64,000 nt of DNA, from positions 1-64,000 of the IMG/VR virus record IMGVR_UViG_3300012000_000008; one strand, given 5' to 3'. Origin of the DNA: a virus. Shown one piece after another: positions 29,906-62,821 of this stretch; the stretch's first letter is position 1; the number at the start of each line of letters is the position of its first letter. The position numbers and the translations under genes are program-made. A model generated the notes under the pieces. The model ran no database searches, had not been told where the DNA came from, and worked only from the letters and a program-made list of their open reading frames with translations.

Positions 29906-30564
29906 AACAATTAGTATTTTTAGTAAATATTACAAAAATTGAACATATACTAAATTTTTCAAATTTTTATTATATTACTGATAAAAAATTCACTATTAAT
30001 GCAGATAATATTATAAAAGTCGATGTAGAGGACAAATATGAAAATTTAGCACTTAAAACTTTTTTAGGGTATAAAGAATTTAAAAGAAAAAATATTAAGT
30101 TTGACTTTTTATGTAGAGTTGACACTGATACTTATATAGATTTTAAAAATCTATATAATTCAAAATTTGAAAATAGAAAAAATTATGGATTTATAAATTA
30201 TGGAAATAGCTTTTTACACGAAAAAAATTTTAATAAATTTCCTTTTTCTCCAGGGTTTACAGAATATTTTTTAGGAGGTGGCTATATGATCAACAAAGAT
30301 TCATTTAATAATTTAAAAATAGACCATTTTATTAATTTAATATATGGAAATATAGAAAAAAATGTTGATATGTGTTTTGAAGATGTGATTACTAGCTTAG
30401 CATTAAAAGAACAAAATCAAACCATGGTACATTCAGGAGCATGGATAGACAAGAAAAATAACTGTACTTCTTCTTGCAACAATTCTTTTTTTCATTCTTT
30501 AAAATTTTATAATGAAAAAAAATTTAAACTTATAAATAAATTACAAAACAAAAATTTAGCTTAA
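29902..30564 (+). CDS. GT31-like glycosyltransferase
   Basis: 'DKYENLALKT', 'FDFLCRVDTDTYID', 'GGGYMIN' and 'FEDVIT'. Confidence 0.7.
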   Translation: MKQLVFLVNITKIEHILNFSNFYYITDKKFTINADNIIKVDVEDKYENLALKTFLGYKEFKRKNIKFDFLCRVDTDTYIDFKNLYNSKFENRKNYGFINYGNSFLHEKNFNKFPFSPGFTEYFLGGGYMINKDSFNNLKIDHFINLIYGNIEKNVDMCFEDVITSLALKEQNQTMVHSGAWIDKKNNCTSSCNNSFFHSLKFYNEKKFKLINKLQNKNLA

Positions 30565-31046
30565 TTATTTTTTAAAATATAACAATTATAATAATTTTTA
30601 AAGCCCAAATTAAAAGCACCTTTTTGACTCAATATATTTTCTGGATGAATTTTTGCAATTAAATATGGTACTTGTTTTTTGTGTTTTCTTAAAATTTTAT
30701 AAAAAATATCATATAACATAAAATTGTTTTTATCTCTAATAATTTTTTTAAATTTATTTTTAATTAATTTTAAATGTTTTGTATTTAAAAAAACTGCAAG
30801 CTCTAAATTTTTAGATATATAAATTTCTGCAAACGGCATTTTTCTATAAGTTATTATATAAAAAGCAAGATAATTTTTTTTTCTTAGTTTTTTTACATGC
30901 TCATTAAAAGAAGGTAACTGTTTTTGCTGGCTTTCAGATTCTATTTCTATATTTTTTTTTTGAAATCTTTCTCTAAGTGTATCATATGTAAATTCTAAAT
31001 GATTCTTATTATATGTGTCCAAGAATTGCATTTGTATATACTGCAT
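30561..31046 (-). CDS. GNAT-like N-acetyltransferase
   Basis: C-terminal 'IAKIHPENILSQKGAFNLGF' (N-x2-S...LGF) and 'PSFNEH', resembling RimJ/PseH-like GNATs. Confidence 0.55.
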   Translation of the reverse strand: MQYIQMQFLDTYNKNHLEFTYDTLRERFQKKNIEIESESQQKQLPSFNEHVKKLRKKNYLAFYIITYRKMPFAEIYISKNLELAVFLNTKHLKLIKNKFKKIIRDKNNFMLYDIFYKILRKHKKQVPYLIAKIHPENILSQKGAFNLGFKNYYNCYILKNN

Positions 31047-31060
31047 GTAACTATTTATAA

Positions 31061-31666
31061 GTGAAAAATACAGATCTACAGTTGCTTTATAAAACAGTAA
31101 ATCTTTTTGAACAAAATTTATGTAATTACACAGGAAGCAAATATGCAGTATCTGTTGACTGCTGTACCAATGCTCTTTTGTTATGCTTTCAGTATTTAAA
31201 TCCTAAAACTATTATTTTGCCTAAAAATACTTTTATTGGTGTGGCATCAGCTGCAACTCATTTAGGAATAAGAGTAAAATTTAAAGATATAAAATGGAAT
31301 GGTATGTATAAAATAGAACCATTAAATGTATTTGATTGTGCAAGAAGATTCACAAGCAACATGTACATAAAAAATTCATTTATGTGTTTATCTTTTCATT
31401 ACAAAAAACATTTAAAAATAGGCAGGGGTGGCGCTATTCTCTTAGATAACTATGAAGCTTATGAATGGTTTTTAAAAGCTAGAAATTGTGGTAAAGATAT
31501 AAGTCTTCCTCTGTTTAAACAGACCTTTGACGTTTGTGGTTGGAATATGCTTTTGCATCCTGAACTTGCTAAAAAAGGAATTAAATTATTAAAAAAAATG
31601 CCTAAAAATAATCTAGATCTACCATATGAGTTCTATGGCAATCTAAACAAACAAATTACATATTAA
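31061..31666 (+). CDS. DegT/DnrJ/EryC1/StrS-type PLP sugar aminotransferase (short form)
   Basis: 'FEQNLCNYTGSKYAVSVDCCTNAL', 'DCA' and 'LSFHYKKHLKIGRGGAI'. Confidence 0.8.
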   Translation: MKNTDLQLLYKTVNLFEQNLCNYTGSKYAVSVDCCTNALLLCFQYLNPKTIILPKNTFIGVASAATHLGIRVKFKDIKWNGMYKIEPLNVFDCARRFTSNMYIKNSFMCLSFHYKKHLKIGRGGAILLDNYEAYEWFLKARNCGKDISLPLFKQTFDVCGWNMLLHPELAKKGIKLLKKMPKNNLDLPYEFYGNLNKQITY

Positions 31667-32934
31667 ACATGAAATCCGCGTTTTTCTTCAGCAAAAGGAA
31701 AATTATTTTGTTCTAAATAAAATCTTAACGGCGATTTATAATATTTGTTTTTTAATTCTGGAGATAACCATAGAAACTCTTGTACTAATTTTTTATCTAA
31801 GAACGGATATCTAGCTTCTATACCCAAACAACCCATCACATACTCGTCCTTAGTAATGTATTCCTTCATAGTACCATTATAAAAGTTTTTCCAAGGAAAA
31901 TATTGTGCTAAATTATCAGGAAAAACACCTTTAAAACAAGAAGTACCATCTAATTCATAAATATTTTTTATAAAATAATCGCCCATTATTTCATCACATC
32001 CAGTACCAGAAAGAAAAATTTTACAATTATTCATTTTGCCTTTTTTTCCTATAAACAACAAAGGCAATGTAGAAGAATCTTTTATAAAATGGTATTCAGT
32101 GTTTTCTTGTAATTCACAGTATTTACGCAAAAAAACTGTTAAAAGAGAATTATTAAATTTGTTATAAAATATAAATTCAGTATTTTTTAATAACAATTTT
32201 CTTTGTTCTAAAACCTCTATATTTTCATTATTTAAAATACTAAAACAATGAAAATTTTTATTTAAATTTAATAATTCTGCTGCTATACATCCACTGTCGT
32301 ACCCGCTACTTAAACCTATAAAAATTTTTTTATCTGTATTGCTTCTTTTAAAAATGGATTCTTTAAAGGCTGCAATCCAATCGTTGTAAGAGGTTTTATA
32401 TTGATTTAAATCAAAAACAGTATTTGTAATATGGTTTATACTATCAGGTGTTTCGAATACAATAGTTGTATTAGGAGCACAAGGCATTATATTTTTTAAA
32501 TTTAAACTTATAAGTGCGCTCTTGTAAGTGCTAGCGTGAACCCCTCTATCTGTAGAAAAATATATTGGTTTTGTTTTAAAAGTATCTGTTGTAACTAAAA
32601 TTTTTTTTAAATTATTGTCTTTTAATATTATAGCAAACTCACCATCTAAATATTTTGCATAATTATCACCGTATTTAAGATAGCATTCTATAATAAAATC
32701 TGCTTCATCAATTCCAACATAATTATAAATTTCACCGTTAAAAATTACTTCTATATTTTTTTTAACTCTTGGTTGTAGACAATCACCTGTTATTTTTAAT
32801 TGATTATGTATAAATGTACCACCATTGTTTTTAAGGACTGATGTTTTATCAGGACCTCTAAAACACATTAAACTATTGGCCAAACAAATTTCTTGTTCAG
32901 TTAATAATTTAGAAGTATATAAAATACTACACAT
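31663..32934 (-). CDS. Asparagine synthetase B-like glutamine amidotransferase
   Basis: Ntn start MCSI, RGPD, FNGEIYNY, LSSGYDS, SGTGCDE and RYPFLD. Start moved to the Met preceding the catalytic Cys. Confidence 0.88.
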   Translation of the reverse strand: MCSILYTSKLLTEQEICLANSLMCFRGPDKTSVLKNNGGTFIHNQLKITGDCLQPRVKKNIEVIFNGEIYNYVGIDEADFIIECYLKYGDNYAKYLDGEFAIILKDNNLKKILVTTDTFKTKPIYFSTDRGVHASTYKSALISLNLKNIMPCAPNTTIVFETPDSINHITNTVFDLNQYKTSYNDWIAAFKESIFKRSNTDKKIFIGLSSGYDSGCIAAELLNLNKNFHCFSILNNENIEVLEQRKLLLKNTEFIFYNKFNNSLLTVFLRKYCELQENTEYHFIKDSSTLPLLFIGKKGKMNNCKIFLSGTGCDEIMGDYFIKNIYELDGTSCFKGVFPDNLAQYFPWKNFYNGTMKEYITKDEYVMGCLGIEARYPFLDKKLVQEFLWLSPELKNKYYKSPLRFYLEQNNFPFAEEKRGFHV

Positions 32935-33709
32935 ATTTTTTATACTCCTCAATTAATTTTTTTAAAGTTAAAAATTTATTTTGAGGTGCATCGTTTTTGT
33001 TATTTAAAATATAGGGGTCGAAATTATTTTTTAATAGTTGATCATTAGAAAACCATGGTTTTTTCTTACCAACAAAATGAACTATTTTTGCAGTTTTTAG
33101 AGTGTTAAGATTTAAGTTTTCAGTAGTTACAAGATATTCTTCAGGCAATTTATATGTTTTATTTTTAAAAATTTTATTAAACACCCCTTGATTACCATGC
33201 CATTTAAATTTTGTTAATAAAGAAATAGCTTCATTATAATTCTCTTCAGTTAAATATTTTTTTCCTATAACCATTAATCCTGCATTAAACCCCCCATTAA
33301 AATTTAAGATTTTTTCATCAGCTTCAGTCATTTTTTGATTTATAACTGCACAGAAATCATGATTACAATTAAAAAGTAAACTTATGTCACCTCTGCAAAG
33401 CATATCTGTATCTAAATAAATGACCTTATCATATTCAGATAATAAGAATATTTCAAATCTGCAAGCAGGGGTTAATGACCAATTGTACGAAAACCTTAAA
33501 TTTTTCTTATATTTAAGCTTGTCAAAATATTTAAATTCTATATTTTTATAAATTTTTAATAAGCTTTCTTTATTTTCCTTTTTGAAATTTTTTTCAACAA
33601 AAATTAAATACGGTATTTCTAATTTATTATGTGTAATCAAGCTTTTTAAAAAGATTTTCATACCAGGTATAAAATCTTCCGTTACAAAAGAAACAAAACA
33701 CATTTTCAT
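32927..33709 (-). CDS. GT8-family glycosyltransferase
   Basis: 'YDKVIYLDTDML', 'FNAGLMVI', 'NQGVFN' and 'IVHFVGKKKPW'. Confidence 0.85.
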   Translation of the reverse strand: MKMCFVSFVTEDFIPGMKIFLKSLITHNKLEIPYLIFVEKNFKKENKESLLKIYKNIEFKYFDKLKYKKNLRFSYNWSLTPACRFEIFLLSEYDKVIYLDTDMLCRGDISLLFNCNHDFCAVINQKMTEADEKILNFNGGFNAGLMVIGKKYLTEENYNEAISLLTKFKWHGNQGVFNKIFKNKTYKLPEEYLVTTENLNLNTLKTAKIVHFVGKKKPWFSNDQLLKNNFDPYILNNKNDAPQNKFLTLKKLIEEYKKYV

Positions 33710-34461
33710 AAATAAATTAACGAATCATCGGTATTTAATAAAAAAAAATTTTTGTTATAAAAAACTTCTTTTTCATATTCTTCTACTGCTGCTAGAAGCA
33801 CTTTATGAGGATTAAAAATAACTTTATTATTCTTAACGGTTTTTCCAAAATTATGATAAATTTTATTTATTATATTTTTTACAATTTTAGCAGGGCCCGC
33901 AATCAAATCATCTCTTAAAATAGCATTAGAACAAAAAGATGTTTTATCAATACATTGTTTTTCAATAGTAATTATCTTCTCTTCAGATAAAAAAGTTTTT
34001 AACCATTCTGTTTTAGAACAAAATAAATTGAGTTTATTAAAATTAAAATTTATTTCTTCTTTTATTAAGCAATCTGGTCTTGTTAAAATTATAAAATCAT
34101 AACTATTATCAACTAGTTCTAATACTTTATTTTTTTTTCTTAAAGACTTTAATTGATTTAAAAATGCTGCAGTTAAATTATTTAAAAATAATTTTGAAGC
34201 TATATTTTCCTTTGATCTTAAAGTAGAGTCACAAATTTCGTCTTCTTTTTCCAACACAATTTTTTTAGTATTTGTTAAGCTAAAGCTATATTCAGATACC
34301 AAATCTTTAAAATTATAAAACCTTTTATCATTTAAATAAGATTTAGTGGTGTAACTATGAATAAAAATATCACAATTGTATTTTTTTATTGTTTTTTCTA
34401 AACCAATTTTACAGTACGGATAATGTCTAAAATGGCCGGCTAAACATAGAGCAGTTTTCAT
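33706..34461 (-). CDS. Putative glycosyltransferase-like protein
   Basis: 'KTALCLAGHFR', 'DIFIHSY' and 'YDFIILTRPD' pattern seen in glycan-cluster proteins. Confidence 0.5.
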   Translation of the reverse strand: MKTALCLAGHFRHYPYCKIGLEKTIKKYNCDIFIHSYTTKSYLNDKRFYNFKDLVSEYSFSLTNTKKIVLEKEDEICDSTLRSKENIASKLFLNNLTAAFLNQLKSLRKKNKVLELVDNSYDFIILTRPDCLIKEEINFNFNKLNLFCSKTEWLKTFLSEEKIITIEKQCIDKTSFCSNAILRDDLIAGPAKIVKNIINKIYHNFGKTVKNNKVIFNPHKVLLAAVEEYEKEVFYNKNFFLLNTDDSLIYL

Positions 34462-34468
34462 TAATTTA

Positions 34469-34503
34469 TTGATATTTAATATTGAAGAAGCTATAATAAA
34501 GAT
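34469..34503 (+). promoter_or_regulatory. Sigma70-like promoter, leaderless geometry
   Basis: TTGATA-N17-TATAAT-N6-ATG. Confidence 0.7.
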
Positions 34504-35370
34504 ATGATTTTATTGACTGGATCAAGCGGGTTTATTGGTAAACATATTTACAATATACTTAAAAAATATTATGGTGTCATTCCTTATGATAAAAAATGTG
34601 GCAAAGATCTTTTAAATATAAAACAACTTGAAAAATCTATACAAAAGTGTGAAATTGTTGTGCATGCTGCAGCTGAAGCAAATTTTGAAAATATGGAAGT
34701 TTTTGATAAAAGCTATTCAAGCACTTCTATGAATATACAAGGCACTCATAATATTGCGCATTTATGCTCTAAACATGAAAAAAAATTAATTTTTATCTCT
34801 ACGTGTTGTGTGTATGGAAATGCTAGTAAATTTGTAGAAGAAATTAAGGTATATCCTAAAGATCTTTATAGTTTTTCTAAACTAGCTGGTGAAAATATTA
34901 TTTTTGGATATCACAAAAATTTTGATTTACAATTTATTATTTTAAGAATAGCTACCTGCTATGGTCCTAATATGAGACCTGAGTTAGGCATTGCAAAATT
35001 TATTTATAATGCCAGCAAGAACATACCACTTCCTATACATGGTAATGGAAAGCAAACCCGTACATTTACACATGTATACGATATTGCACAGGGGGTATTA
35101 AAATCAATAAAGTTTTTTAATATAGCAAAAAATAATATTATAAATATAAGTACCACTGAACAGACCTCAGCATTACAAGCTGCAAAAGACATCATAAGAC
35201 TGTGTAAAAGCAAATCACCACTACAGTTTGTTAAACAAAGAAAACATCAAATTTTTAAGGAAAATGTGAGCAACCATAAAGCTATGCAACTTTTAAAATG
35301 GTCCCCTAAGTATAATTGGCAAAAAGGAATATGCCAAACCATTAAAACATATGTTAATCAAAAATATTGA
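34504..35370 (+). CDS. NAD-dependent nucleotide-sugar epimerase/dehydratase
   Basis: TGSSGFIG, YSFSK (YxxxK) and 'GNGKQTRTFTHVYD'. Confidence 0.9.
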   Translation: MILLTGSSGFIGKHIYNILKKYYGVIPYDKKCGKDLLNIKQLEKSIQKCEIVVHAAAEANFENMEVFDKSYSSTSMNIQGTHNIAHLCSKHEKKLIFISTCCVYGNASKFVEEIKVYPKDLYSFSKLAGENIIFGYHKNFDLQFIILRIATCYGPNMRPELGIAKFIYNASKNIPLPIHGNGKQTRTFTHVYDIAQGVLKSIKFFNIAKNNIINISTTEQTSALQAAKDIIRLCKSKSPLQFVKQRKHQIFKENVSNHKAMQLLKWSPKYNWQKGICQTIKTYVNQKY

Positions 35371-36091
35371 ATATGAAATTGTGGAGCATTGCAATTTAAG
35401 ATGTAAAAATTGCAATAAGTTTAGTTATATTAAAGAACACAATTGCATTGATATAGATCAGATAAAAAAAGACTTTTTTTTATTAAGCAAAAGATTTACA
35501 CTTGAAAATTTTACCATCCTAGGCGGTGAACCGTTGCTTCACCCTGATTTAAACAATATAATTTTACTAGCAAAAAAGGCATTTAATAATAGTGCTATAA
35601 AAATAATTACAAACGGTGCTTTATTTTTTAAAAAAGATTTTATTTTTTTAAATCTCTTATCAGCAAAAAACATAACTTTAGAAATTTCCAAATATGAACT
35701 TAATATTGATTATGAAAAAATAAAAAATATTTGCAAAAAATTTAATATTAATTTTATTTTAACTGAAAAGCAATATTTTAAAGATTTTGTTGATAAAAGC
35801 GGTTCATGCGATCCAGACAAAAGTTTTAAAAGATGTAGAGAATTGGTTTATTGCCCAAGTTTTTTTAATGGTAAACTCTTTCAATGCGGATATTCAAAAA
35901 GCAGCGAATTTTTAACTAAAACAAGCAGACTTTCAAATTTTGCTTTAGATAAAGGTATAGATATAAGCAGCACAGATGAACAAATTTACAAATATTTGAC
36001 TGCACCTGTTCCAACTTGTAAATTTTGTAGTGTTGATGCAGAGTTTCATCCATGGAGGCAACTAAGCTCACAGGAAATAAAAAATATATGA
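35351..36091 (+). CDS. Radical SAM protein
   Basis: CNLRCKNC (CxxxCxxC), GGEPLLHP, TNG and extra C-terminal cysteines. Confidence 0.88.
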   Translation: MLIKNIEYEIVEHCNLRCKNCNKFSYIKEHNCIDIDQIKKDFFLLSKRFTLENFTILGGEPLLHPDLNNIILLAKKAFNNSAIKIITNGALFFKKDFIFLNLLSAKNITLEISKYELNIDYEKIKNICKKFNINFILTEKQYFKDFVDKSGSCDPDKSFKRCRELVYCPSFFNGKLFQCGYSKSSEFLTKTSRLSNFALDKGIDISSTDEQIYKYLTAPVPTCKFCSVDAEFHPWRQLSSQEIKNI

Positions 36092-36852
36092 ATGTTTGTT
36101 TTTTTTATTCAGTTTATAATAGATATAATATACTAAAACAAAACTTAACTCTTTTAAAAAATAACAATATTTCCAACATAGTATTTTTAATTGATAAGAC
36201 TAAAAGCTATAACTTAAATAACTTAAAAGCAATTAATTTAGTTAAAAATTCAAATTTAATTTACAAAGTTAATACTTCACACAAAGGCTCTTTCTGTACT
36301 TTTATAGATTTTTTTTATAATTTAAAAAAATTTCCTGACTATTCTATTTTTATAGAGGATGACTGTTTGCTTACAAATGAGTTCTTTGAATTTCATAATA
36401 TGGTATCAAACAACTTAAGCTATTTTATTAAAAATAATATAGCCTTGGTTTCACCGTTTGGTTTTAACTATGCTACTGACAATAATTTTAGTTTATCTAA
36501 CATTGATTGCAGTCTTATAAAAGGAAATCTGTGGGGATGTGGTTATATTGCGCCTTTTATAGAGCAGTTTTTTAAAGAAAAAAAATTTAATGCAGATGGT
36601 ACTTTTTATTTGGATTTAAATGTCCTTAATTATTTTTCTTCACAGAATAAAAGTATAGCTGTTGCTAGTCACAATCTTATTTCTTATGAGGGCCTAAAAG
36701 ATAGTAGAGATTACGATCAATTAAAACACTGTATTGATCATCCCATGTTTAAAGCTAATTTAAATTTTAAAGAGCTAAACATAGAATTTAACAATAATAA
36801 TCATTCATTCCTACAAAAACATAATTTTTTTAGAAATAATTGCATTTGTTAA
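36088..36852 (+). CDS. GT-A fold glycosyltransferase-like protein
   Basis: 'VYNR', 'IFIEDDC' and 'WG' motifs; ATGA coupling to the upstream gene. Confidence 0.55.
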   Translation: MNVCFFYSVYNRYNILKQNLTLLKNNNISNIVFLIDKTKSYNLNNLKAINLVKNSNLIYKVNTSHKGSFCTFIDFFYNLKKFPDYSIFIEDDCLLTNEFFEFHNMVSNNLSYFIKNNIALVSPFGFNYATDNNFSLSNIDCSLIKGNLWGCGYIAPFIEQFFKEKKFNADGTFYLDLNVLNYFSSQNKSIAVASHNLISYEGLKDSRDYDQLKHCIDHPMFKANLNFKELNIEFNNNNHSFLQKHNFFRNNCIC

Positions 36853-36871
36853 AAAGTTTTTAAATAATTTT

Positions 36872-37576
36872 ATGCAAATATTAATACCCATGGCAGGAAT
36901 GGGGTTAAGATTTAAAAATGCTGGTTTTGAAGTACCTAAACCGCTCATTAAAGTTAAAAATAAAACCCTCATTGAACATTCTGTAGAGACACTCAATATT
37001 AGCGGCCAATACATTTTTATAACAAGAAAATACTGGAATGAGTATGATTCTATATTGTCTGAAATATTAAAAAAATTAAGTCCCGATTCTATTGAAATTA
37101 AAATTGACTACAATACAAATGGAAGTGTTGATTCATGTCTTTTATCTGAACCTTTTTTAAAAAAAAATGATGAATTAATAACTACTAACTGTGATCAATA
37201 TTTAAAATGGAACTCAAATGAGTTTCTGCACTATATGAATAGCAACCAAGCAGCAGGTGGTATTCTTACTTTTACTTCTACTGATCCTAGACATTCTTTC
37301 GCAAAAATAAATCAAAATAGAGTTATACAAATTGTAGAAAAAAAAGCTATTAGTAATTGTTCACTTGTAGGTGTACATTATTTTAAAAAGAGTAAGTATT
37401 TTTTATATTCTGGAAAAAAATTAAAAAAGATAGTTAAAAACAGAGAATGCTATGTTTCTGAAACATATAATTTATTAATTGAAAAAAAATTAAAAGTAAT
37501 TTATTTTAATTTAGAAAATGGGTACTATCCCCTAGGTGTTCCTGAGGATTTAAATAATATAAATGAAATTGTTTAA
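36872..37576 (+). CDS. Sugar-phosphate nucleotidyltransferase
   Basis: 'IPMAGMGLRF...PKPLI', 'NCDQ', 'VEKKAIS' and 'LGVPEDL'. Confidence 0.85.
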   Translation: MQILIPMAGMGLRFKNAGFEVPKPLIKVKNKTLIEHSVETLNISGQYIFITRKYWNEYDSILSEILKKLSPDSIEIKIDYNTNGSVDSCLLSEPFLKKNDELITTNCDQYLKWNSNEFLHYMNSNQAAGGILTFTSTDPRHSFAKINQNRVIQIVEKKAISNCSLVGVHYFKKSKYFLYSGKKLKKIVKNRECYVSETYNLLIEKKLKVIYFNLENGYYPLGVPEDLNNINEIV

Positions 37577-37886
37577 TTTAAATAATATGAAATTAGGCTG
37601 GTTTGTAGGTAATTTTGAACCAACAGCATTTAAAACAAGTAATTTTGAAGTTTCCTATAAACTACACAGAAAAAATGAAAAATGGGATAAACATTTTCAT
37701 ACCACAGTAACTGAAATAAACTTAATCATAAGAGGAAAAATGAAAATACAAGGCAAATTGCTCTTTAGTCATGATATTTTTATTTTAGAGCCTTATGAAA
37801 TTGCGGACCCTGAATTTTTACAAGATACAGAAATTATTTGTGTTAAAACACCTTCAGCTAACGATAAAGTGGTTGTTAAATTTTAA
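37563..37886 (+). CDS. Cupin-fold protein
   Basis: 'GWFVGNFEP' and an HxH...E metal motif (HFHTTVTE). Confidence 0.7.
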   Translation: MKLFNLNNMKLGWFVGNFEPTAFKTSNFEVSYKLHRKNEKWDKHFHTTVTEINLIIRGKMKIQGKLLFSHDIFILEPYEIADPEFLQDTEIICVKTPSANDKVVVKF

Positions 37887-38655
37887 TTTTATATTTATTA
37901 TCTAAGAAACCACTAACACTTAAACAATCATACTCTAATTTGTAAGAGACCAATTTATTATCATTAACAACATTTGTATTCTTATAACCTTCAATTAACA
38001 TTAATGCAGGTGTGCCACCACCAACAGACCCCTCAATTACATAAGGCATAAAAGCAGTTTTCATTTTTTTAAGCTCATTTTTTAAGGTAAAGCTACTTCT
38101 TACAAAATAACATCCTTCTTTTATTAAATTAAATGTAGAATCAATATTATTAGTAAAAAATTCTTTAAAAATAGTTTCAGTATAGATATTATTTTTAACC
38201 TTAACAAAATTTTTTAAAGTATTTTTATCTATGCTTTGATAAACACATAAAATATCAAAAACTTTATTTATCAAAAAAGAGTCTATATCTTTAATTATTA
38301 TATTGTCTGTATCTACCTGTAACACATGTTCATAGCTGTCTAAAAATTCTAACACCATGAGATGTTTTAAGCAGTTAGCAATTGAACCTGTTTTTCTGAA
38401 AAACATTTCATTTATTTTTTTACTATTTGGATGTTTAGGTACAAGAGTGTCAGCCTTATAAAACTCAAAAAAATCATATGTAAATACTTTAAAGTCTTTA
38501 CACTTTAAAGACAAATATTTTTTTTCTTCTTCATTATTTACAACAAATCTACAATGCATAGATGTATTTGGATTACTAATACGCAAACTTAAATACAGTC
38601 TTTCTAAAAAATTAAAATATTTTTTATTGCAGCTTGTTATTACTATTGCAGACAT
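37876..38655 (-). CDS. Putative glycosyltransferase (DxD)
   Basis: 'IVITSCNKKY' and 'YEHVLQVDTDNII'. Confidence 0.5.
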   Translation of the reverse strand: MSAIVITSCNKKYFNFLERLYLSLRISNPNTSMHCRFVVNNEEEKKYLSLKCKDFKVFTYDFFEFYKADTLVPKHPNSKKINEMFFRKTGSIANCLKHLMVLEFLDSYEHVLQVDTDNIIIKDIDSFLINKVFDILCVYQSIDKNTLKNFVKVKNNIYTETIFKEFFTNNIDSTFNLIKEGCYFVRSSFTLKNELKKMKTAFMPYVIEGSVGGGTPALMLIEGYKNTNVVNDNKLVSYKLEYDCLSVSGFLDNKYKIKI

Positions 38656-38691
38656 AGTTGATATTGTTTAAATATATATAATAATTATCTT

Positions 38692-39348
38692 GTGCATAGT
38701 AAATATCTATTTTTAGTACCTCATGCAGATGATGAAGCACTAGGGTTTGGTGGAACTATTGCAAAATTATGTGAAAAAGGCAATGAAGTAACTGTTGCTA
38801 TTGTGCAAGCACCAAACAACAGTCGTGCTGCTAAACAACTTGAAAATGCTTTTAAAGCTAAAGAAATTTTAGGCTATAAAGATTTAGATTTTATTTCTAT
38901 ACCCAATGATGTATTTTGTAATGATTTATTTTTCTTAAAGAACAAAATTGAAGATTATATTTTATCTAAAACACCTACAGTGATTTACACTTCTTTTGTT
39001 GCAGATAATCACCAAGACCATAAAAATCTTTACAGAGCTGTATCAATTGCATGCAGACCTTCTGGACCATGCAAATCAGTAAGAACTATTTTTGCCGGAG
39101 AAATAATTTCTTCTTATGATCAATCATTAGGAGTAGAAAGAATAATTTTTACACCTAATTACTATGAAACACTTGAATTAAGCCATATAAACAAAAAAAT
39201 CATGGCATTGGAAGCATATGAATATGAGATACAAGCCTCTCCTCACCCAAGGTCAAAAGAATCAATAGTTGCCAAGAGTATAGTAAGGGGATCAGAAAGC
39301 AACAGCATGTATGCTGAAGCTTTTATGATGCTAAGAACTATAATTTAG
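38692..39348 (+). CDS. PIG-L/LmbE-family N-deacetylase
   Basis: PHADDEALGFGGTI, HQDH and final 'AEAF'. Confidence 0.9.
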   Translation: MHSKYLFLVPHADDEALGFGGTIAKLCEKGNEVTVAIVQAPNNSRAAKQLENAFKAKEILGYKDLDFISIPNDVFCNDLFFLKNKIEDYILSKTPTVIYTSFVADNHQDHKNLYRAVSIACRPSGPCKSVRTIFAGEIISSYDQSLGVERIIFTPNYYETLELSHINKKIMALEAYEYEIQASPHPRSKESIVAKSIVRGSESNSMYAEAFMMLRTII

Positions 39349-40132
39349 AAAGTTCATCTTTATACTGTTTTAAAAATTTTAATAAAATATTATAGCCTGA
39401 AGGGCCATTATTTTTTAAAACACTACTTAAAACAAAACTGCTAAAATTATCTTTTATTTTGTCGGAATTAACTAAGAAAGGTTTTTTATCACCACCAAAA
39501 TGTAAAAATTTTATATCTGTATGAATATTTTTTTTATTAATAAAAGGCGTAGATAAAAAATAATTTTCTGGTAACATAGTAACTTTATCATTAAAAAAAG
39601 CATTAAGAGGGCCTTGATTACCTAGCCAGCTGTTAACACTACTTATTTTTAATAATTCCTCTACGACACTATCATTCAAGTATTTTTTACCTATTACCAT
39701 TAATCCAGCATTAAATGATTTGTCCGGACAAAACCCAGAGTAATTAAAATTTTTACTATTAACACCGTCAGGATGTGGGTGATATACTGCACCAAAATCA
39801 CATTGTAAATCAAAAAGTTCATTTATGTTTGACAAACATATCATATCCAAATCTAAAAAAATAATTTTTTCATAATTTTTAAGTCTAAAAATATTGTATC
39901 TAACCAAAGGATTAATGTTCCATTTTCTAACAGCCCGGCCACAAAACTTTGGCATTGCAGGCTCATCAATAAAAAGCACATTATTACATAATTGCTTATT
40001 TTTAACTGTTATTTTTTCTTCTTCTATAGCTAAAAAGTCAAACTTTTTTGATGTGTTGCGTATGATGGTATTTTGTAAAACTTTAAGTGCAGGAATGTAG
40101 TTGTTAGAAACAGTAACTACTATAGCTTGCAT
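39338..40132 (-). CDS. GT8-family glycosyltransferase (paralog of 32927..33709)
   Basis: 'YEKIIFLDLDM', 'FNAGLMVIGKKYL', 'NQGPLN' and 'HFGGDKKP'. Confidence 0.85.
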   Translation of the reverse strand: MQAIVVTVSNNYIPALKVLQNTIIRNTSKKFDFLAIEEEKITVKNKQLCNNVLFIDEPAMPKFCGRAVRKWNINPLVRYNIFRLKNYEKIIFLDLDMICLSNINELFDLQCDFGAVYHPHPDGVNSKNFNYSGFCPDKSFNAGLMVIGKKYLNDSVVEELLKISSVNSWLGNQGPLNAFFNDKVTMLPENYFLSTPFINKKNIHTDIKFLHFGGDKKPFLVNSDKIKDNFSSFVLSSVLKNNGPSGYNILLKFLKQYKDELSKL

Positions 40133-48249: not shown

Positions 48250-48253
48250 TGAT

Positions 48254-48657
48254 GGGCCAGTACATGGAATCGATTGAACTGTGGAATTCATGGACGCAAG
48301 CACTGGGGCATGCCAGTATAAAATAGCAAACAAAATTAAATGCCGAAGATACCTTCGACATGGCCATGAGTCTGGAACAGGCTGATGCAATTCTTGCTCA
48401 GCATGGCTTTGTAGACTCAGAAGCTGAACTCGAGTTAGTTTAACTCGATCGTCTTGTTGTAGATTGAGATTGGTAAAACAAGGCGTGTTACAAATCTCTG
48501 ACTTGGTGTGTTGTGATGGTTATCTGCCAAGCGTATAAAACTATCATATGAAATGCGTTTAGCTTGGTTGCATGCATTTTGAATTTTAACCAAGATAAGC
48601 TTGTAGAGTCAATGAATGAAATTGTTCAAGACGTGGGTTCAAATCCCACCTGGTCCA
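48254..48657 (+). ncRNA. ssrA: tmRNA
   Basis: Acceptor GGGCCAG/CTGGTCC-A with G3-U70; 5' GGAATCGA; T-arm GTGGG-TTCAAAT-CCCAC; helix-2 pairings TTGAAC/GTTCAA and GCAAGC/GCTTGT; tag ORF 48342-48443 after AATTAAAT, with the stop codon in a hairpin. Confidence 0.93.
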
Positions 48658-48707
48658 CATGAAAATATATGTGTTGATAAATGCTTGCAATGCATTATAA
48701 TAATAAT

Positions 48708-49490
48708 GTGAAAGAAGTATTTTTTATTAATGGCATGCCTCGCTCAGGCAGCACTTTGCTTTGCAACATTCTGGCTCAAAATCCAGATTTCCATGTGACA
48801 CCCACCAGTGGTCTGAGTGAAATGATCAGAGGCATTCATCAATTCTGGAAACAAAACCCAGTAATCAAAGCTTCTGAAACACCAGAAAAACAATTGCAAA
48901 TCATCAAAGATCTTTTTCAAAGCTATCACTCTGACACAGAACGCCCTGTGGTGTTCAACAAGAGCAGAGGATGGTCATCTATGATTGAACTGGTGGAAAA
49001 TGCTTTGGATCGTCCCATTAAAATTTTAACCACCACCAGAAGAATCACATGCATTCTATCATCTTTGGAAAAATTGTACCGCAAAGAAATAAAGCTTGTT
49101 AATAGTCCCATGGAAATTGGTCCCATGATGGCTACCCTGGAAGGCAGAATTACCATGTGGACCAATCAAGATGGACTGGTGGGAGGCACATTCAATACCA
49201 TCAGAGATGCATGCATGAGGGGCCACCGAGACAAGTTTCATTTTGTAGATTTTGAAGAACTCACATCCACACCCAAGAGAGTCATGCAATCTGTGTACAA
49301 GTTTCTGGACAGAGACTATTATGACCATGACTTCAATAACATTGCTCAATACACCAAAGAGAATGATGCAGAGCATGGATTCACAGATTTGCATACTATT
49401 CGGCCTGAAATCAAGCCGGTCAAAGATGATAGCAAAGAAATATTGGGTCATTTGCATGAAAATTTTAAAAATTTTCACTTTAATTTTTAA
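48708..49490 (+). CDS. Sulfotransferase family protein
   Basis: PAPS-binding GMPRSGSTLL, 'NKSRGW' and 'FEELTSTP'. GTG start fits TTGATA-N16-TATAAT-N6-GTG. Confidence 0.88.
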   Translation: MKEVFFINGMPRSGSTLLCNILAQNPDFHVTPTSGLSEMIRGIHQFWKQNPVIKASETPEKQLQIIKDLFQSYHSDTERPVVFNKSRGWSSMIELVENALDRPIKILTTTRRITCILSSLEKLYRKEIKLVNSPMEIGPMMATLEGRITMWTNQDGLVGGTFNTIRDACMRGHRDKFHFVDFEELTSTPKRVMQSVYKFLDRDYYDHDFNNIAQYTKENDAEHGFTDLHTIRPEIKPVKDDSKEILGHLHENFKNFHFNF

Positions 49491-49510
49491 AATAAAACAT
49501 AAATAACTAT

Positions 49511-49801
49511 ATGAGCGAAAGAACTAAAGTAGATGTACTATTTGACAGTGTTTACACTATCAACCAAGTATTGGGCAATGAAAACAAAGGTGATGGTCAA
49601 AGAGGCGCACTCAAGGCCAATGTTGACTACATCAAGCATTGCTTGAAAAAAGAGGAATACACTCAGGTGCTAACAACTGAACAGACACAAGCTCTTAACA
49701 AAGCTGTTGCAGATGCAGAAGCTAAGATTGCTACTCTGCCTGTGCCAGAAGATGAAGCTAAGCGCGCTGAAAAACAAGCTCAGTTCAAGCCCAAAGCCTG
49801 A
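49511..49801 (+). CDS. Hypothetical protein
   Basis: 96-aa helical ORF; TAAATA-N5-ATG. Confidence 0.6.
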   Translation: MSERTKVDVLFDSVYTINQVLGNENKGDGQRGALKANVDYIKHCLKKEEYTQVLTTEQTQALNKAVADAEAKIATLPVPEDEAKRAEKQAQFKPKA

Positions 49802-49813
49802 GTATAACACTGC

Positions 49814-50710
49814 ATGTATAGTATCCTGCACGTAGAAGGCGGCGCTGGAAAAAATATTGTGGCCACCAATGTGGTCAGGAACATCAAAAAAACACATCCA
49901 GACAGAAAGCTGGTGGTTGTAGCACCATATCCTGAGGTGTTTTTGCACAATCCTCATGTGCATCGTGTATATAAGACTGGTGTGTGTCCTTATTTTTACG
50001 AAGATTACATTCAAAACAAAGATACTCTGGTGTTTAAGCATGAACCATACAACAGCAATGATGTTATTACTAGAAAATGCAGCTTAGCACAAGCATGGTG
50101 TCAAAGCTTAGGGTTGGAATTGGATAGAAATGCACCTGAATTATTTTTTAATAACATTGAAAGACAAAACAGCAATGTCTTATTGAATCAAATCAACACA
50201 GACAAACCCATTATTGCACTGCAGATCAATGGAGGCATGGGCAACAAACAGAACCAAATTAATTTTAATTGGTTCAGAGATTTGCCTCCTTTCTATGCAC
50301 AAGCTTTGATCAATCAATATGCAGATCGTTTCACTTTTGTGCAAATCAAGAATTCTCACCAAGTAGCTTTGCAAGGTGCATTGCAAGTGGATTTGTCTTT
50401 GAGAGAAATATTCTTAATTTTAGCTCAATGCAAGGGTGCTATTGGCATTGATTCAGTGGTGCAGCATGCCATGGCTGCTTTTGGTAAATCGAGCTTGGTT
50501 TTTTGGATCGGCAACAACCCCACAGTTTTTGGTTACGATATGCACACCAACATGGTTGCCAATGTGCCTGCTGCTGATAATCTGGAAAGTTATCTGGACC
50601 CTTACCCTCTTAATACTCATGGGCATCAGTGCCCTGCTGGCTACCGCATGGTGGATTTGTTTGATGCCAAGGAAATTATTAGTAATTTTGAAAAATTATT
50701 TTTGGCTTAA
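49814..50710 (+). CDS. GT9 (heptosyltransferase-like, GT-B) glycosyltransferase
   Basis: 'GGAGK', 'YPEVFLHNPHV' and 'IGIDSVVQHAMAAFG'. Confidence 0.72.
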   Translation: MYSILHVEGGAGKNIVATNVVRNIKKTHPDRKLVVVAPYPEVFLHNPHVHRVYKTGVCPYFYEDYIQNKDTLVFKHEPYNSNDVITRKCSLAQAWCQSLGLELDRNAPELFFNNIERQNSNVLLNQINTDKPIIALQINGGMGNKQNQINFNWFRDLPPFYAQALINQYADRFTFVQIKNSHQVALQGALQVDLSLREIFLILAQCKGAIGIDSVVQHAMAAFGKSSLVFWIGNNPTVFGYDMHTNMVANVPAADNLESYLDPYPLNTHGHQCPAGYRMVDLFDAKEIISNFEKLFLA

Positions 50711-53700
50711 ACGCTGTTGAATTGTATTTTTCGCAAAGTGCCATTCAAATTGATTACTAGCCAGCCAGCTGCTGCACCTGCTGTAGCTGTGGTGCTCAAT
50801 GGCCATGTGGTGCTGCCCATGGCCCATTGATTGCTGGCAGTTGCAGTAGCAAATGCACCCATGGCAATGACACCAGACAAACTGCCAGTAGACACATTGG
50901 CTTGATTGCCAATGATAACATTATTAGACCCTATGGTGTTGGTGCACCCTGCGCTCAATCCCAAGAAATTGTTACCATTGCCTGAAGTATTGCAGAGACC
51001 AGCTACTCGACCCAAGAAATTGTTATCATTGCCTGTGGTGTTGCAACGGCCAGCTGCATATCCAAAGAAATTGTTGTTATTGCCTGTGGTGTTACAAAAG
51101 CCAGCACTTCTTCCCATGAAATTGTTGCAACTGCCTGCATTGTTATTGTAGCCAGCACGTCTTCCTAGAAAATTGTTGTCATTGCCTGTGCAGCTGTTAC
51201 GACCAGCTCTGTATCCAAAGAAATTGTTGTAAGCACCTGTGGTGTTGCTAAAGCCAGCACTTGGTCCCAAGAAATTGTTGTTACCGCCTGTGCAGTTGTT
51301 ACGGCCAGCCGCATATCCAAAGAAATTGTTGTTATTGCCTGTGGTGTTACAAAAGCCAGCATATCTTCCCATGAAGATATTGGCACCGCCTGTGCAGTTG
51401 TTACGGCCAGCACGGTATCCAACAAAGATATTGTTGTTACCACTTGTGTTACAAAACCCTGCACGGTATCCTAAGAAATTGTTGCTGCTACCAGTGCAGT
51501 TATTATAGCCAGCACCATCACCAAAGAAATTGTTATTTCTGCCTGTGGTATTGCTACATCCAGCATTTCTTCCCAAGAAATTGTTGTAACGGCCTGTGGT
51601 GTTGGAACGGCCAGCATATCTGCCTAAGAAATTGTTGTAACTGCCTGTGCAGTTGCAGTAGCCAGCATCATATCCAAAGAAATTGTTGTGGTTGCCTGTG
51701 CAGTTGCAATAACCAGCAAATCTTCCCAAGAAATTGTTGTGGTTGCCTGTGGTATTGCCAAAGCCAGCATTGTTTCCAAAGAAATTGTTGTGGCTGCCTG
51801 TGGTGTTGTTACGGCCAGCAACGAATCCCAAGAAATTGTTCGAGTTACCTATGGTGTTGCTATAGCCAGCAATTCTTCCCAAGAAATTGTTGCCACTGCC
51901 TGAGGTTAATGCATTACCAGCACTCAATCCAAATACAAAATTATGACTGCCCGTAGCATTATTGTTACCTGTGGTACTATCACCAATGAATACGTTAGGA
52001 CCTGGGTTAGTACCTTTTAATGTTCTTATAGATATATCTGCAGAAGATAATACTATTTGATTGGTTTGGGTGGCTATGGCTCTTGTACCAAGAACTATGA
52101 CCCCTGACAGACTGCCAGTACTAACGTTAGCACCATTGCCAATGATAACATTATTAGACCCTATAGTGTTGGTGCTCCCTGCATTTAATCCCAAGAAATT
52201 GTTGTCATTGCCTGTGCAGTTGCAATAGCCAGCACGGTATCCCAAGAAATTGTTGCTATTGCCTGTGGAGTTGCAGTAGCCAGCACGGTATCCCAAGAAA
52301 TTGTTGTAACGGCCTGTGGTATTATATTTACCAGCACTTTGTCCTATGAAATTGTTGTGACTGCCTGTGGTGTTGCTACGGCCAGCATTACCTCCAAAGA
52401 AATTGTTGCTACCGCCTGTGGTGTTGGAAAAGCCAGCATATCTGCCCAAGAAATTATTGTAACTGCCTGTGGTGTTGCAGTAGCCAGCATATCTGCCCAA
52501 GAAATTATTGTAACTGCCTGTGGTGTTGCAGTAGCCAGCACGACTTCCCAAGAAACTATTAAAGTTGCCTGTGGTGTTGTAAAAGCCAGCATGGAATCCA
52601 AAGAAATTGTTGTTACTGCCTGTGGTGTTAAATGCACCTGCTGCTATTCCCAAGAAATTGTTGTAATTGCCTGTGGTGTTAGATGCACCTGCTGCAGGCC
52701 CCAAGAAGTTATTGCCACTGCCACTGTAATTGGAAAAACCAGCATTGCACCCCAAAAAGTTATTAAAAGAACCAACATTATTTGCCCGGCCAGCATTTTC
52801 ACCCAAGAAATTGTTAAAACCACCAGAACTAAGCCCATTGCCCGCACTCAATCCAACTGCAAAATTGCCAGTTTGACTTGCATTACCATTGCCTGCAGCA
52901 GTACCAATGAAAACGTTTTGCAATGCATCACTTGCAAACCTGGTGGTTAGCAAATACAAATCAGTGGCACTCAAGCTGGTGGTGCTCAAACCGCTGGCCA
53001 ATGTTAAATTGCCACCAATGTACACATCACCTGCAGAATTTACAGAAAAGGCAGTGGCGCTGAATGGATTGCCTATGGTAGTATTATTGAACAGATAAAT
53101 GCCACCAGAAGCAAATGCATTTATGGAGTTATTAGCAAAAGAAGAACTGTTCAATGCATTTGTATTGGCAGATATGACTGTAGACCCCGGATGCACTGCA
53201 TTGGCTTGCTTGCCAATGGCTGTACTATTGAATGCTGTAGCATTGGAATCAATGCCTTGTGCATAAGCATAATTTCCAGATGCAACAGAATTATAACCTT
53301 GTGCATGAGATCCTGTGCCAGATGCCAATGTGAACACTCCCTCTGAATGAGAACCTACACCTGTTGCAGAAGTATTGAACCCTTGCGCTACTGTATTAAA
53401 ATTAGTAGCTGTATTGTCAAAAAACTCAACTTGAAGGTTGTTTTTTATTTTGAGTGACACATCATTGTCATCATAAAATACTGCCACAGGCTGTGCTCCT
53501 GTTTGTTTGACTGTGAGTGCAGGGCCTGTTCCAGTGTTAACCACACTCAATGCACTGGTGACTGAAACAATGGTATCAATGTAAGAGAAATCACCCAAAG
53601 CTGTCAAGCTGCCAGCAATCAAAGCATTGCCTCCTACAAACAAATTGTTAGAAGCAGAAAGACTGCCAGCCAGGTGAAAATCACCCAAAAATGGTTCACT

Positions 53701-53805
53701 TGCTGAAGCTATGGGATCAGATGCAGAATCTGGATAGCCTGCTGAAGCATTGGTATGGTGACCTCTTCTGTGTAGTTTGTTATGAAAGCGAGCATTTCCT
53801 GCCAT
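50707..53805 (-). CDS. Beta-helical repeat fibre/adhesin-like virion protein
   Basis: Hep/Hag-like segment followed by two arrays of 14-aa repeats 'NNFLGxxAGxxNTTG'. Confidence 0.72.
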   Translation of the reverse strand: MAGNARFHNKLHRRGHHTNASAGYPDSASDPIASASEPFLGDFHLAGSLSASNNLFVGGNALIAGSLTALGDFSYIDTIVSVTSALSVVNTGTGPALTVKQTGAQPVAVFYDDNDVSLKIKNNLQVEFFDNTATNFNTVAQGFNTSATGVGSHSEGVFTLASGTGSHAQGYNSVASGNYAYAQGIDSNATAFNSTAIGKQANAVHPGSTVISANTNALNSSSFANNSINAFASGGIYLFNNTTIGNPFSATAFSVNSAGDVYIGGNLTLASGLSTTSLSATDLYLLTTRFASDALQNVFIGTAAGNGNASQTGNFAVGLSAGNGLSSGGFNNFLGENAGRANNVGSFNNFLGCNAGFSNYSGSGNNFLGPAAGASNTTGNYNNFLGIAAGAFNTTGSNNNFFGFHAGFYNTTGNFNSFLGSRAGYCNTTGSYNNFLGRYAGYCNTTGSYNNFLGRYAGFSNTTGGSNNFFGGNAGRSNTTGSHNNFIGQSAGKYNTTGRYNNFLGYRAGYCNSTGNSNNFLGYRAGYCNCTGNDNNFLGLNAGSTNTIGSNNVIIGNGANVSTGSLSGVIVLGTRAIATQTNQIVLSSADISIRTLKGTNPGPNVFIGDSTTGNNNATGSHNFVFGLSAGNALTSGSGNNFLGRIAGYSNTIGNSNNFLGFVAGRNNTTGSHNNFFGNNAGFGNTTGNHNNFLGRFAGYCNCTGNHNNFFGYDAGYCNCTGSYNNFLGRYAGRSNTTGRYNNFLGRNAGCSNTTGRNNNFFGDGAGYNNCTGSSNNFLGYRAGFCNTSGNNNIFVGYRAGRNNCTGGANIFMGRYAGFCNTTGNNNNFFGYAAGRNNCTGGNNNFLGPSAGFSNTTGAYNNFFGYRAGRNSCTGNDNNFLGRRAGYNNNAGSCNNFMGRSAGFCNTTGNNNNFFGYAAGRCNTTGNDNNFLGRVAGLCNTSGNGNNFLGLSAGCTNTIGSNNVIIGNQANVSTGSLSGVIAMGAFATATASNQWAMGSTTWPLSTTATAGAAAGWLVINLNGTLRKIQFNSV
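50900..52870 (-). repeat. Coding tandem repeats (42-bp unit, two arrays)
   Basis: Recurrent 'ccaagaaattgttg...gcctgtggtgttg...gccagc' every 42 bp. Confidence 0.9.
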
Positions 53806-62570: not shown

Positions 62571-62821
62571 GGCCCAGTAGTCCAACGGCAGAGACAAACG
62601 ACTTTATTTGGAGTCCTTACATAGGAATATGTATGAAAAAAGCTGTAAATTCGGTGAACGCTTAACTGCCAATACCGAGCCAAACCTATAGGGAGGTGTA
62701 GAGACTATAATCAGCTACTCAGAACGGGTAAAGGTATAGTCCAGACCACAAACATAATGGTAGCGAAAGCTATAGTGGTAAGAAAATCGTTCAAGTGTCA
62801 GTTCGAGTCTGACCTGGGCCA
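62571..62821 (+). tRNA. tRNA-Leu(UAA), short variable loop, split by a group I intron (exons 62571-62604 and 62783-62821)
   Basis: GGCCCAG/CTGGGCC-A; spliced anticodon arm AACGA-CT-TAA-AA-TCGTT; GTCAG-TTCGAGT-CTGAC. Confidence 0.88.
62605..62782 (+). mobile_element. Group I self-splicing intron (178 nt, no ORF)
   Basis: P1 GACTT/GAGTC with U-G at the 5' splice site; P AAATTCGGTGAA; Q AATACCGAGC; R GTAGAGACTA; S AAGGTATAGTCC; GNRA loops; terminal omega-G. Confidence 0.9.

Follow-up and report, generated by a model that had tools for sequence, protein, structure and literature searches.

A 178-nt ORF-less group I intron in a short-arm tRNA-Leu(UAA) gene of a phage genome fragment

The DNA analysed here, referred to as the window, is a stretch of 64,000 nucleotides (positions 1 to 64,000 of IMG/VR record IMGVR_UViG_3300012000_000008). 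The record itself is a 90.7-kb fragment and is estimated to be 42% complete. Positions 62571-62821 of the window hold the two halves of a tRNA-Leu(UAA) gene, with a 178-nt insert between them. The split gene starts 2 nt after one plus strand ORF and ends 9 nt before the next one, and the minus strand ORFs across the region (59 and 35 aa) are spurious. In intron mode (-i), ARAGORN calls a tRNA-Leu(taa) at this place and puts a 178-nt intron between ..gactt and aaaat... The exons, the intron and its helices are located as follows.

62571-62604, plus strand: tRNA-Leu(UAA) exon 1, tRNA positions 1-34 (ARAGORN -i; L350 and L284, relatives that lack the intron, have the same 34 nt), with the 5' strand of the acceptor stem, a 3-bp D stem, a Leu-like D loop, the 5' strand of the anticodon stem, and C32 U33 U34
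62605-62782, plus strand: group I intron of the IC3 tRNA-Leu type, 178 nt, ORF-less (RF00028, covariance model R1, empty-site alignment)
62600-62615, plus strand: P1, 6 bp; exon positions 62600-62604 and U62605 pair with the guide 62610-62615
62618-62633, plus strand: P2 hairpin, 6 bp, with a GGAA (GNRA) loop at 62624-62627 (RNAalifold, R1; compensatory changes at 23:34 and 25:32 in the compact clade)
62642-62715, plus strand: P3 (62642-62645 with 62712-62715), enclosing the P4-P6 domain and the 5' strand of P7
62650-62679, plus strand: P4 (62650-62655 with 62674-62679) and a short P5 (62660-62661 with 62668-62669), with J4/5 and J5/4
62680-62696, plus strand: P6 (62680-62681 with 62695-62696) and a minimal P6a (62685-62686 with 62691-62692, 4-nt loop), from the model alignment
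62703-62741, plus strand: P7, the guanosine-binding pseudoknot helix (62703-62707 with 62737-62741), enclosing the 3' strand of P3 and P8
62717-62729, plus strand: P8, 4 bp with a 5-nt loop (compensatory exchange of C-G and U-A at 121:131 in L360)
62745-62779, plus strand: P9 three-way junction, with P9 formed by 62745-62749 and 62775-62779 (covariation in the family for P9, P9a and P9b alike)
62753-62754 with 62758-62759: P9a, with a UAA triloop, versus GNRA in the family
62761-62764 with 62769-62772: P9b, with a GAAA loop at 62765-62768 and covariation at all 4 pairs
62782, plus strand: omega-G, the final intron nucleotide (the column is an invariant G in 41 sequences; the boundary is set by the empty site)
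62783-62821, plus strand: tRNA-Leu(UAA) exon 2, tRNA positions 35-73 (ARAGORN -i; empty-site alignment), with A35 A36 A37 A38, the 3' strand of the anticodon stem, a 5-nt variable loop ending in U48, the T arm, the 3' strand of the acceptor stem, and A73; CCA is not encoded

The boundaries of the insert can be read from an intron-less syntenic relative, L350, whose upstream and downstream ORFs share 59% and 51% amino acid identity with those of the window. In a three-way alignment, the gap in L350 covers exactly window positions 62605-62782: exon 1 aligns up to 62604, and the alignment resumes at 62783. L350 and L284 are identical to the joined exons of the window at 67-68 of 73 positions, and in both the predicted junction, ..CGACTTAAAATCG.., is uninterrupted. 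A splice site one base later, after U62605, would make an anticodon loop of 8 nt. It is contradicted by L360 and is excluded by the empty site, since the gap in L350 is exact. The initial annotation, which was made from the letters alone, had placed a 178-nt intron with the same coordinates between U34 and A35 and had predicted a spliced product of 73 nt with a short variable loop. The placement agrees with the ARAGORN intron-mode call and with the gap in L350, and the product with the same call and with the intron-less relatives.

Standard annotation does not see this gene. Default ARAGORN run on the window does not call the split tRNA-Leu, and Rfam at gathering thresholds returns no intron match in the whole window. 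A local, permissive Rfam search does find RF00028 (model positions 1-253, 45.5 bits, E 1.7e-10), below the curated gathering cut-off of 50 bits for this model. At E<=0.01, Rfam gave zero matches on four phage loci with clear homologues, L002 and L003 being among those missed, and the model is therefore insensitive to the tRNA-Leu intron family. According to Williams 2020, the RF00028 seed holds zero bacterial sequences. We built a covariance model, R1, from 40 viral tRNA-Leu introns, with the window excluded. R1 matches window positions 62598-62787 over its full length (model positions 1-212) with 145.9 bits and an E-value of 2.5e-36, and has no second scoring match across the window. The covariance models thus speak for a group I intron, with the reservation that the RF00028 score remains under the gathering threshold. 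Since default ARAGORN and the Rfam gathering thresholds miss the introns in phage tRNA genes, the tRNA sets of phages are under-counted.

The structure of the intron is supported by covariation in a structural alignment of the window copy with 40 distinct viral tRNA-Leu(UAA) introns (41 sequences). Run blind, RNAalifold recovered P2, P3, P4, P5, P6, P6a, P8, P9 and the two P9 hairpins, with compensatory changes at 27 of 47 pairs. When the structure was supplied explicitly, including the P3/P7 pseudoknot, 86% of the cells were paired, versus 28-47% with the partners slid, and the covariation score was 0.281, versus at most 0.118. P3 shows covariation at all 6 family pairs; the window retains 4-5 of them, with the register offset by one column. 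P4 is invariant in the 41 sequences, the P5 pair 73:84 exchanges G-C and C-G in 17 sequences, and P6a covaries across the family. P7, with the strands GACUA and UAGUC, is paired in 100% of the 41 sequences, and its fifth pair exchanges A-U and U-A in 8 of them. All of J3/4, J4/5, J6/7, J8/7, P4 and P7 in the window are identical to the family consensus. The centroid of the thermodynamic fold also contains P2, P4/P5, P7, P8 and P9b; at an MFE z-score of -1.0, however, thermodynamic folding alone carries no weight. In P1, as read from the sequence, the splice-site wobble is U62604.G62611, and the UUU of the loop (62607-62609) can pair with the first AAA of exon 2 to give a P10 of 3 bp. All the elements named in the initial annotation (P1 with its U-G pair, P2 with the GGAA loop, the P/Q/R/S core, P7, P8, P9 with the GAAA loop, and omega-G) are located in the alignment, in the RNAalifold result or in the R1 match.

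Relative to the consensus of the R1 alignment, 22 positions are missing from the window intron: 3 in the P1 loop, 1 in J2/3, 2 in L5, 6 in the tip of P6a, 1 beside the 3' strand of P3, 8 in distal P8 and 1 in L9a. The P6/P6a region is 6 nt under the family consensus length, and the distal P8a hairpin that most relatives possess is absent (8 nt less). The description of the intron as having almost no peripheral domains holds for these peripheral loops, but P2 and the P9/P9a/P9b three-way junction are kept. In P5, the window has a C.C mismatch, versus a G.U pair in most relatives. As the GNRA loop of L9a is lost, and P6a and P8 are at minimal length, the tertiary contacts that stabilise the relatives may be weakened in this intron, and a chaperone or high Mg2+ might be needed.

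At 178 nt, the window intron is the shortest among ~150 homologues that were sized. Outside its own clade, the next lengths are 183-193 nt. Introns in viral split tRNAs measure 187-216 nt, with some longer ones, and cellular introns below 400 nt measure 189-368 nt, with a median of 233. Six further members of the family, found in 887 kb of phage DNA, cover 208-231 nt on R1, versus 190 for the window. The sizes form a continuum, over which the margin to the next lengths is ~5-13 nt. For group I introns of jumbo phages, an average of ~206 nt was reported in 2026 (2,513 introns, PMC12880540), and a search of the literature for a stated size record of group I introns found nothing usable. It is defensible to call the window intron the shortest known member of the tRNA-Leu family. 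The more general claim, which ranks it with the smallest natural group I ribozymes, has not been established and is true only modestly.

A pattern search that demanded a short P6 and a short P8 identified three further compact copies: L359 and L361 (both 179 nt) and L360 (180 nt). Of these, L359 belongs to a genuine relative of the present phage, in which several genes are 70-85% identical in nucleotides and the split tRNA follows the same upstream ORF. Nine helix pairs vary among the four copies, and 8 of these 9 are compensatory or wobble-preserving. Four double changes keep or gain pairing (P2 23:34, P2 25:32, P8 121:131 and P5 62:73); the other variation consists of three or four wobble-preserving single changes and one broken pair. 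The U34 wobble is kept in 4 of the 4 copies. Its neighbouring pair, read by hand, is U-A in L360, so that only U34 keeps the U.G wobble. The exons vary in a similar manner: the window has C-G at acceptor pair 5:68 where L359 and L361 have U-A, and the T stem of L360 is altered on both strands. Compensatory changes of this kind indicate purifying selection on the tRNA exons, which would require that the intron be removed. In the intron tree, the window intron groups with those of L359, L360 and L361 in a clade that is supported at 100/100 and has a long stem branch, so compaction happened once. Adjoining the compact tRNA-Leu copy of L361, at positions 1977-2171 (Ga0214923_10071647), there is also a tRNA(CAU) gene, which is split by a second compact group I intron (183 nt, R1 144 bits).

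The wider family is large. A core motif derived from the window is present in >118 viral contigs and >120 cellular genomes, and lies within a split tRNA gene in 65 of 120 viral and 101 of 120 cellular candidates. The cellular hits are mostly introns of tRNA-fMet and tRNA-Arg (including Nostoc tRNA-Arg), with few in Leu(UAA). About 10 ARAGORN calls of 'tRNA-Tyr(ata)' and 19 of 'Leu(caa)' among the relatives are splice-site miscalls of Leu(UAA) and fMet(CAU) genes. Among viruses, Agrobacterium phage Atu_ph07 (L003, MF403008.1, ~112.9-113.25 kb) has a tRNA-Leu(UAA) with a 278-nt group I intron (R1 176 bits), the 735-kb megaphage LR756501 has a tRNA-Leu(UAA) intron of 205 nt, and in a Microcoleus phage a homologous intron splits tRNA-Arg(CCU). 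More than 45 IMG/VR contigs carry phage tRNA-Leu(UAA) introns of 191-216 nt; some introns reach 691-899 nt and contain HNH genes. In L066, L069, L075 and L281, the 691-899-nt tRNA-Leu introns encode HNH endonucleases of 160-209 aa (Pfam HNH_3/HNH), and that of L281 sits in a short-arm tRNA(UAA) gene. A 189-aa ORF in the intron of L077 has no Pfam domain match. To explain the intron tree, at least 3 host switches between short-arm and long-arm tRNAs are needed. The HNH-carrying members, taken together with these switches, indicate that the tRNA-Leu intron family is mobile.

Some further observations were made along with these searches. The split tRNA of Atu_ph07 is missing from its annotation, which places a CDS for a 'hypothetical protein' (AUZ94936.1) across exon 2 and the 3' end of the intron. 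The core motif also matches in or beside protein genes, namely in capsid genes of Pelagibacter phage HTVC120P and a marine phage (H3/H4), and in the crAss-like cr111_1, adjoining genes for a GIY-YIG endonuclease and a helicase (H8); these are presumably group I introns of the same broad type. Two IMG/VR contigs, L315 and L353, have a short-arm tRNA-Leu(UAA) with an identical 49-nt insert at the 34/35 site. This insert ends in CACCA, resembles a tRNA minihelix and is not a group I intron. A search via the 607-aa structural protein encoded in the neighbourhood of the window gene led to three loci, none with this tRNA.

The interrupted tRNA is a widespread phage tRNA that has already been annotated elsewhere. 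Short-arm tRNA-Leu genes are annotated in Prochlorococcus phage P-SSM7 (73 nt, 'codon recognized: UUA'), Synechococcus phage S-CREM1, Rhodococcus phage Trina and ~20 Streptomyces phages (Karimacvirus). They share with the window the D arm, the 5-nt variable loop ending in GU, A73 and the CUUAAAA loop; unlike the window gene, those of P-SSM7, S-CREM1, Trina and Karimacvirus are uninterrupted. At least 118 copies of the short-arm tRNA(UAA) turned up when viral contigs were searched with the 5' exon; ~105 of these are uninterrupted, and an insert is present in ~10% of the copies sampled. Among the 105 intron-less homologues, the CUUAAAA anticodon loop is identical in 104 and A73 is present in 103. 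The long variable arm of class II tRNAs is absent from the window tRNA, which has a variable loop of 5 nt. In E. coli, LeuRS depends on A73, A14, A15-U48, G18G19 and A20a, and the long variable arm is dispensable (review, PMC9976931); all of these determinants are present in the joined exons. Since LeuRS does not need the arm, the short loop makes the molecule less typical as a tRNA-Leu, without counting against its charging with leucine, and the tRNA is probably leucylated. As for codon demand, TTA was correctly noted as a common Leu codon: in the record, which has a GC content of 33.9%, it is the commonest one (38%), followed by TTG (24%). The split gene encodes the only Leu tRNA within the 90.7 kb of the record; as the record is a 42%-complete fragment, this statement applies to 90.7 kb only.

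In view of its homology to the tRNA-Leu introns, its exact boundaries and conserved structure, the purifying selection on its exons and its mobile relatives, the insert is very probably an ordinary IC3 intron that lacks an ORF, is able to splice and survives in a phage tRNA-Leu(UAA) gene as a streamlined remnant of a mobile family driven by HNH enzymes. Catalysis and unaided self-splicing of the window copy are predictions from sequence. Because ORFs lie 2 nt upstream and 9 nt downstream, the tRNA is probably transcribed within a polycistronic RNA. The intron would then fold, and exogenous guanosine would attack after U34, held in the U.G wobble of P1. Omega-G would replace the exogenous guanosine in the P7 pocket, and ligation of the exons would create the CUUAAAA anticodon loop. 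RNase P, 3' trimming and CCA addition would complete the tRNA, which is expected to decode UUA and UUG, together 62% of the Leu codons of the phage. The intron would be a selfish passenger from a family that spreads among phage tRNA-Leu(UAA) genes by means of intron-encoded HNH homing endonucleases. The window copy, which is ORF-less, would have become 22 nt shorter through losses in peripheral loops (P1 loop, L5, P6a, distal P8, L9a), with the core junctions kept.

It is possible, although somewhat doubtful, that the intron is kept because it confers immunity at the DNA level, by splitting the target site of homing endonucleases that cut intron-less tRNA-Leu(UAA) genes in co-infections. The enzymes could be the HNH proteins of intron relatives, or free-standing ones. 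This idea is compatible with the selfish passenger and would add a selective reason for its persistence. Long family members do encode HNH endonucleases, that of L281 within a short-arm tRNA(UAA) gene, and the intron has switched at least 3 times between tRNA body types. Moreover, L359, with the intron, and L284, without it, have nearly the same tRNA and both come from sample 3300016472. However, most short-arm tRNA(UAA) genes do well without an intron, and a source of the enzyme is not at hand in the record: the 178-nt intron has no ORF, the flanking ORFs have no Pfam match, no endonuclease domain was found in them, and no HNH gene or relative of one is present in the 90.7 kb, to which this negative result is confined by the incompleteness of the record.

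The initial annotation had proposed two functions for the intron in the phage programme. According to the first, splicing would be a regulatory gate, and its efficiency would time the supply of tRNA-Leu(UAA) and thereby the translation of TTA-rich late and glycan genes. The use of TTA is in fact uneven, with 50-78% of the Leu codons at 28-40 kb versus 0-26% at 42-54 kb. We nevertheless regard a gate as very unlikely and find no support for it. About 90% of the homologous short-arm tRNA(UAA) genes, including the syntenic one in L350, are intron-less, and the intron is therefore dispensable for the phage programme. In addition, the intron contains no sensor or switch element, its compact form has lost peripheral domains and gained none, and the host presumably supplies a tRNA-Leu(UAA) of its own.

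Still less probable is the possibility that the window copy is a decaying, splicing-dead intron in a tRNA pseudogene. The shortened peripheral elements, the C.C mismatch in P5, the degenerate L9a and the Rfam score under threshold would be in line with decay. On the other hand, all core junctions correspond to the family consensus, and in four diverged copies compensatory changes have preserved the helices of the intron as well as the stems of the tRNA. The compact clade is also conserved internally, despite the long branch on which it sits.

Least probable of all is the second proposed function, in which the intron would keep anticodon nucleases of the host defence away from the anticodon loop until the precursor has matured: other tRNAs of the window are structurally unusual, and published work describes phage tRNAs that counter tRNA-cleaving defences, with Septu cleaving tRNA-Tyr, but precursors are short-lived, no nuclease reported to act on tRNA-Leu(UAA) was found in the literature, and the mature CUUAAAA loop is normal, is exposed like any other and is the same in 104 of 105 intron-less homologues, which leaves the proposal without support. 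The HNH-carrying members of the family point to the history of an ordinary selfish element rather than to gating or hiding.

The site of insertion is not new. Among 5,292 split bacterial tRNA genes, Williams 2020 designates the CUU/intron/AAAA site of the classic cyanobacterial and plastid intron as 'Leu.3Ug'. The ARAGORN call and the empty-site alignment place the window intron at this same U34/A35 site, CUU/AAAA, which confirms the correspondence that had been claimed. Compared by description, the window intron and the cyanobacterial and plastid one have in common the site, U-1 in the P1 wobble, omega-G, the core sequence blocks and the GNRA loops on P2 and P9. The window differs in its phage host, in the 5-nt variable loop instead of a long arm, and in the intron length of 178 nt. 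The Azoarcus intron, the usual reference for a 'minimal' natural group I ribozyme, is likewise a compact, ORF-less IC3 tRNA intron with tetraloops on P2 and P9. It resides in another tRNA, at a site after the anticodon, and, compared by description, is ~27 nt longer than the window intron, which is shorter mainly in its minimal P6a and P8. The introns of Atu_ph07, LR756501 and the IMG/VR phages belong to the same family by R1 (176 bits for Atu_ph07, 146 for the window) and occupy the same site; compared with them, the ORF-less window clade is separate, on a long branch, and the window copy is 22 nt below the consensus.

Small, ORF-less group I introns of ~200 nt are also abundant in the genomes of the Jug jumbo phages (Sci Adv 2026, PMC12880540), where splicing was confirmed by metatranscriptome reads for 37 of 76. 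These introns differ in that they lie in protein genes (terL, nrdD, DNA polymerase); tRNA genes are not mentioned in PMC12880540. A review from 2014 states that all phage introns known at the time were in protein genes (PMC3984707), as the initial annotation had also stated for classic phage group I introns. The statement is accurate as a reflection of that literature, but homologues of the window intron split tRNA genes in 65 of 120 viral candidates, among them Atu_ph07, the megaphage and the Microcoleus phage. The window intron and its relatives thus contradict the view that phage group I introns occur only in protein-coding genes. A preprint on Lak megaphages describes tRNA introns as previously unreported in phages, and does not assign its own 'enigmatic' ones to group I. 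Our literature search found no explicit report of group I introns in phage tRNA genes.

The window intron is nonetheless real but fairly ordinary, and does not represent a new kind of biology. Its novelty is lowered by the abundance of the family in phage tRNA genes, by the existing annotation of the tRNA and by the small margin in size. Its interest lies elsewhere. From the compact clade one can see which peripheral parts an IC3 intron is able to lose in nature: the tip of P6a, distal P8, L9a and part of the P1 loop. The coexistence of intron-less alleles, alleles with an ORF-less intron and alleles with an HNH-carrying intron, all of one small tRNA gene, also offers a tidy system for the study of homing and intron loss in phages.

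The Anabaena tRNA-Leu intron, with a length of ~250 nt, is the standard scaffold for making circular RNA. For RNA engineering, the compact intron would provide a scaffold that is ~70 nt shorter and has the same exon context, a use that is directly testable. A bolder reading of the compact clade (178-180 nt) combines several of the points above. Its members would be fully autonomous ribozymes and the smallest natural self-splicing IC3 tRNA introns, with minimal P6a and P8 and without the L9a tetraloop, and would be kept in phage tRNA-Leu genes through immunity to HNH endonucleases that cut intron-less alleles. We put this forward tentatively and consider it rather unlikely as a whole. If it holds, the clade would serve as a new minimal model ribozyme, and intron-mediated endonuclease immunity would have its first example in a phage tRNA gene.

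Several other features of the window RNAs and codons deserve mention. The choice of Leu codons differs by region: TTA accounts for 50-78% of them at 28386-40132 and for 0-26% at 42257-53805, where TTG is dominant, a contrast that suggests blocks of different origin or expression class. Two further tRNA genes of the window, tRNA-Asn(GUU) at 44462-44544 (83 nt) and tRNA-Thr(UGU) at 44551-44632 (82 nt), have a long, class II-like variable arm, and the former also has a Leu/Tyr-like D arm and G73. Asn and Thr isotypes normally have a short variable loop, while the tRNA-Leu of this phage lacks the long arm. An ARAGORN intron-mode call of a 'tRNA-Asn, 175-nt intron' at 44461-44714 is false and joins two neighbouring tRNAs. 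A seventh tRNA is detected by Rfam at 45843-45917 (52.7 bits) and is not called by ARAGORN. Finally, positions 48254-48660 encode a tmRNA (RF00023, 92 bits), which has a long insertion in the region of the tag reading frame relative to the model.
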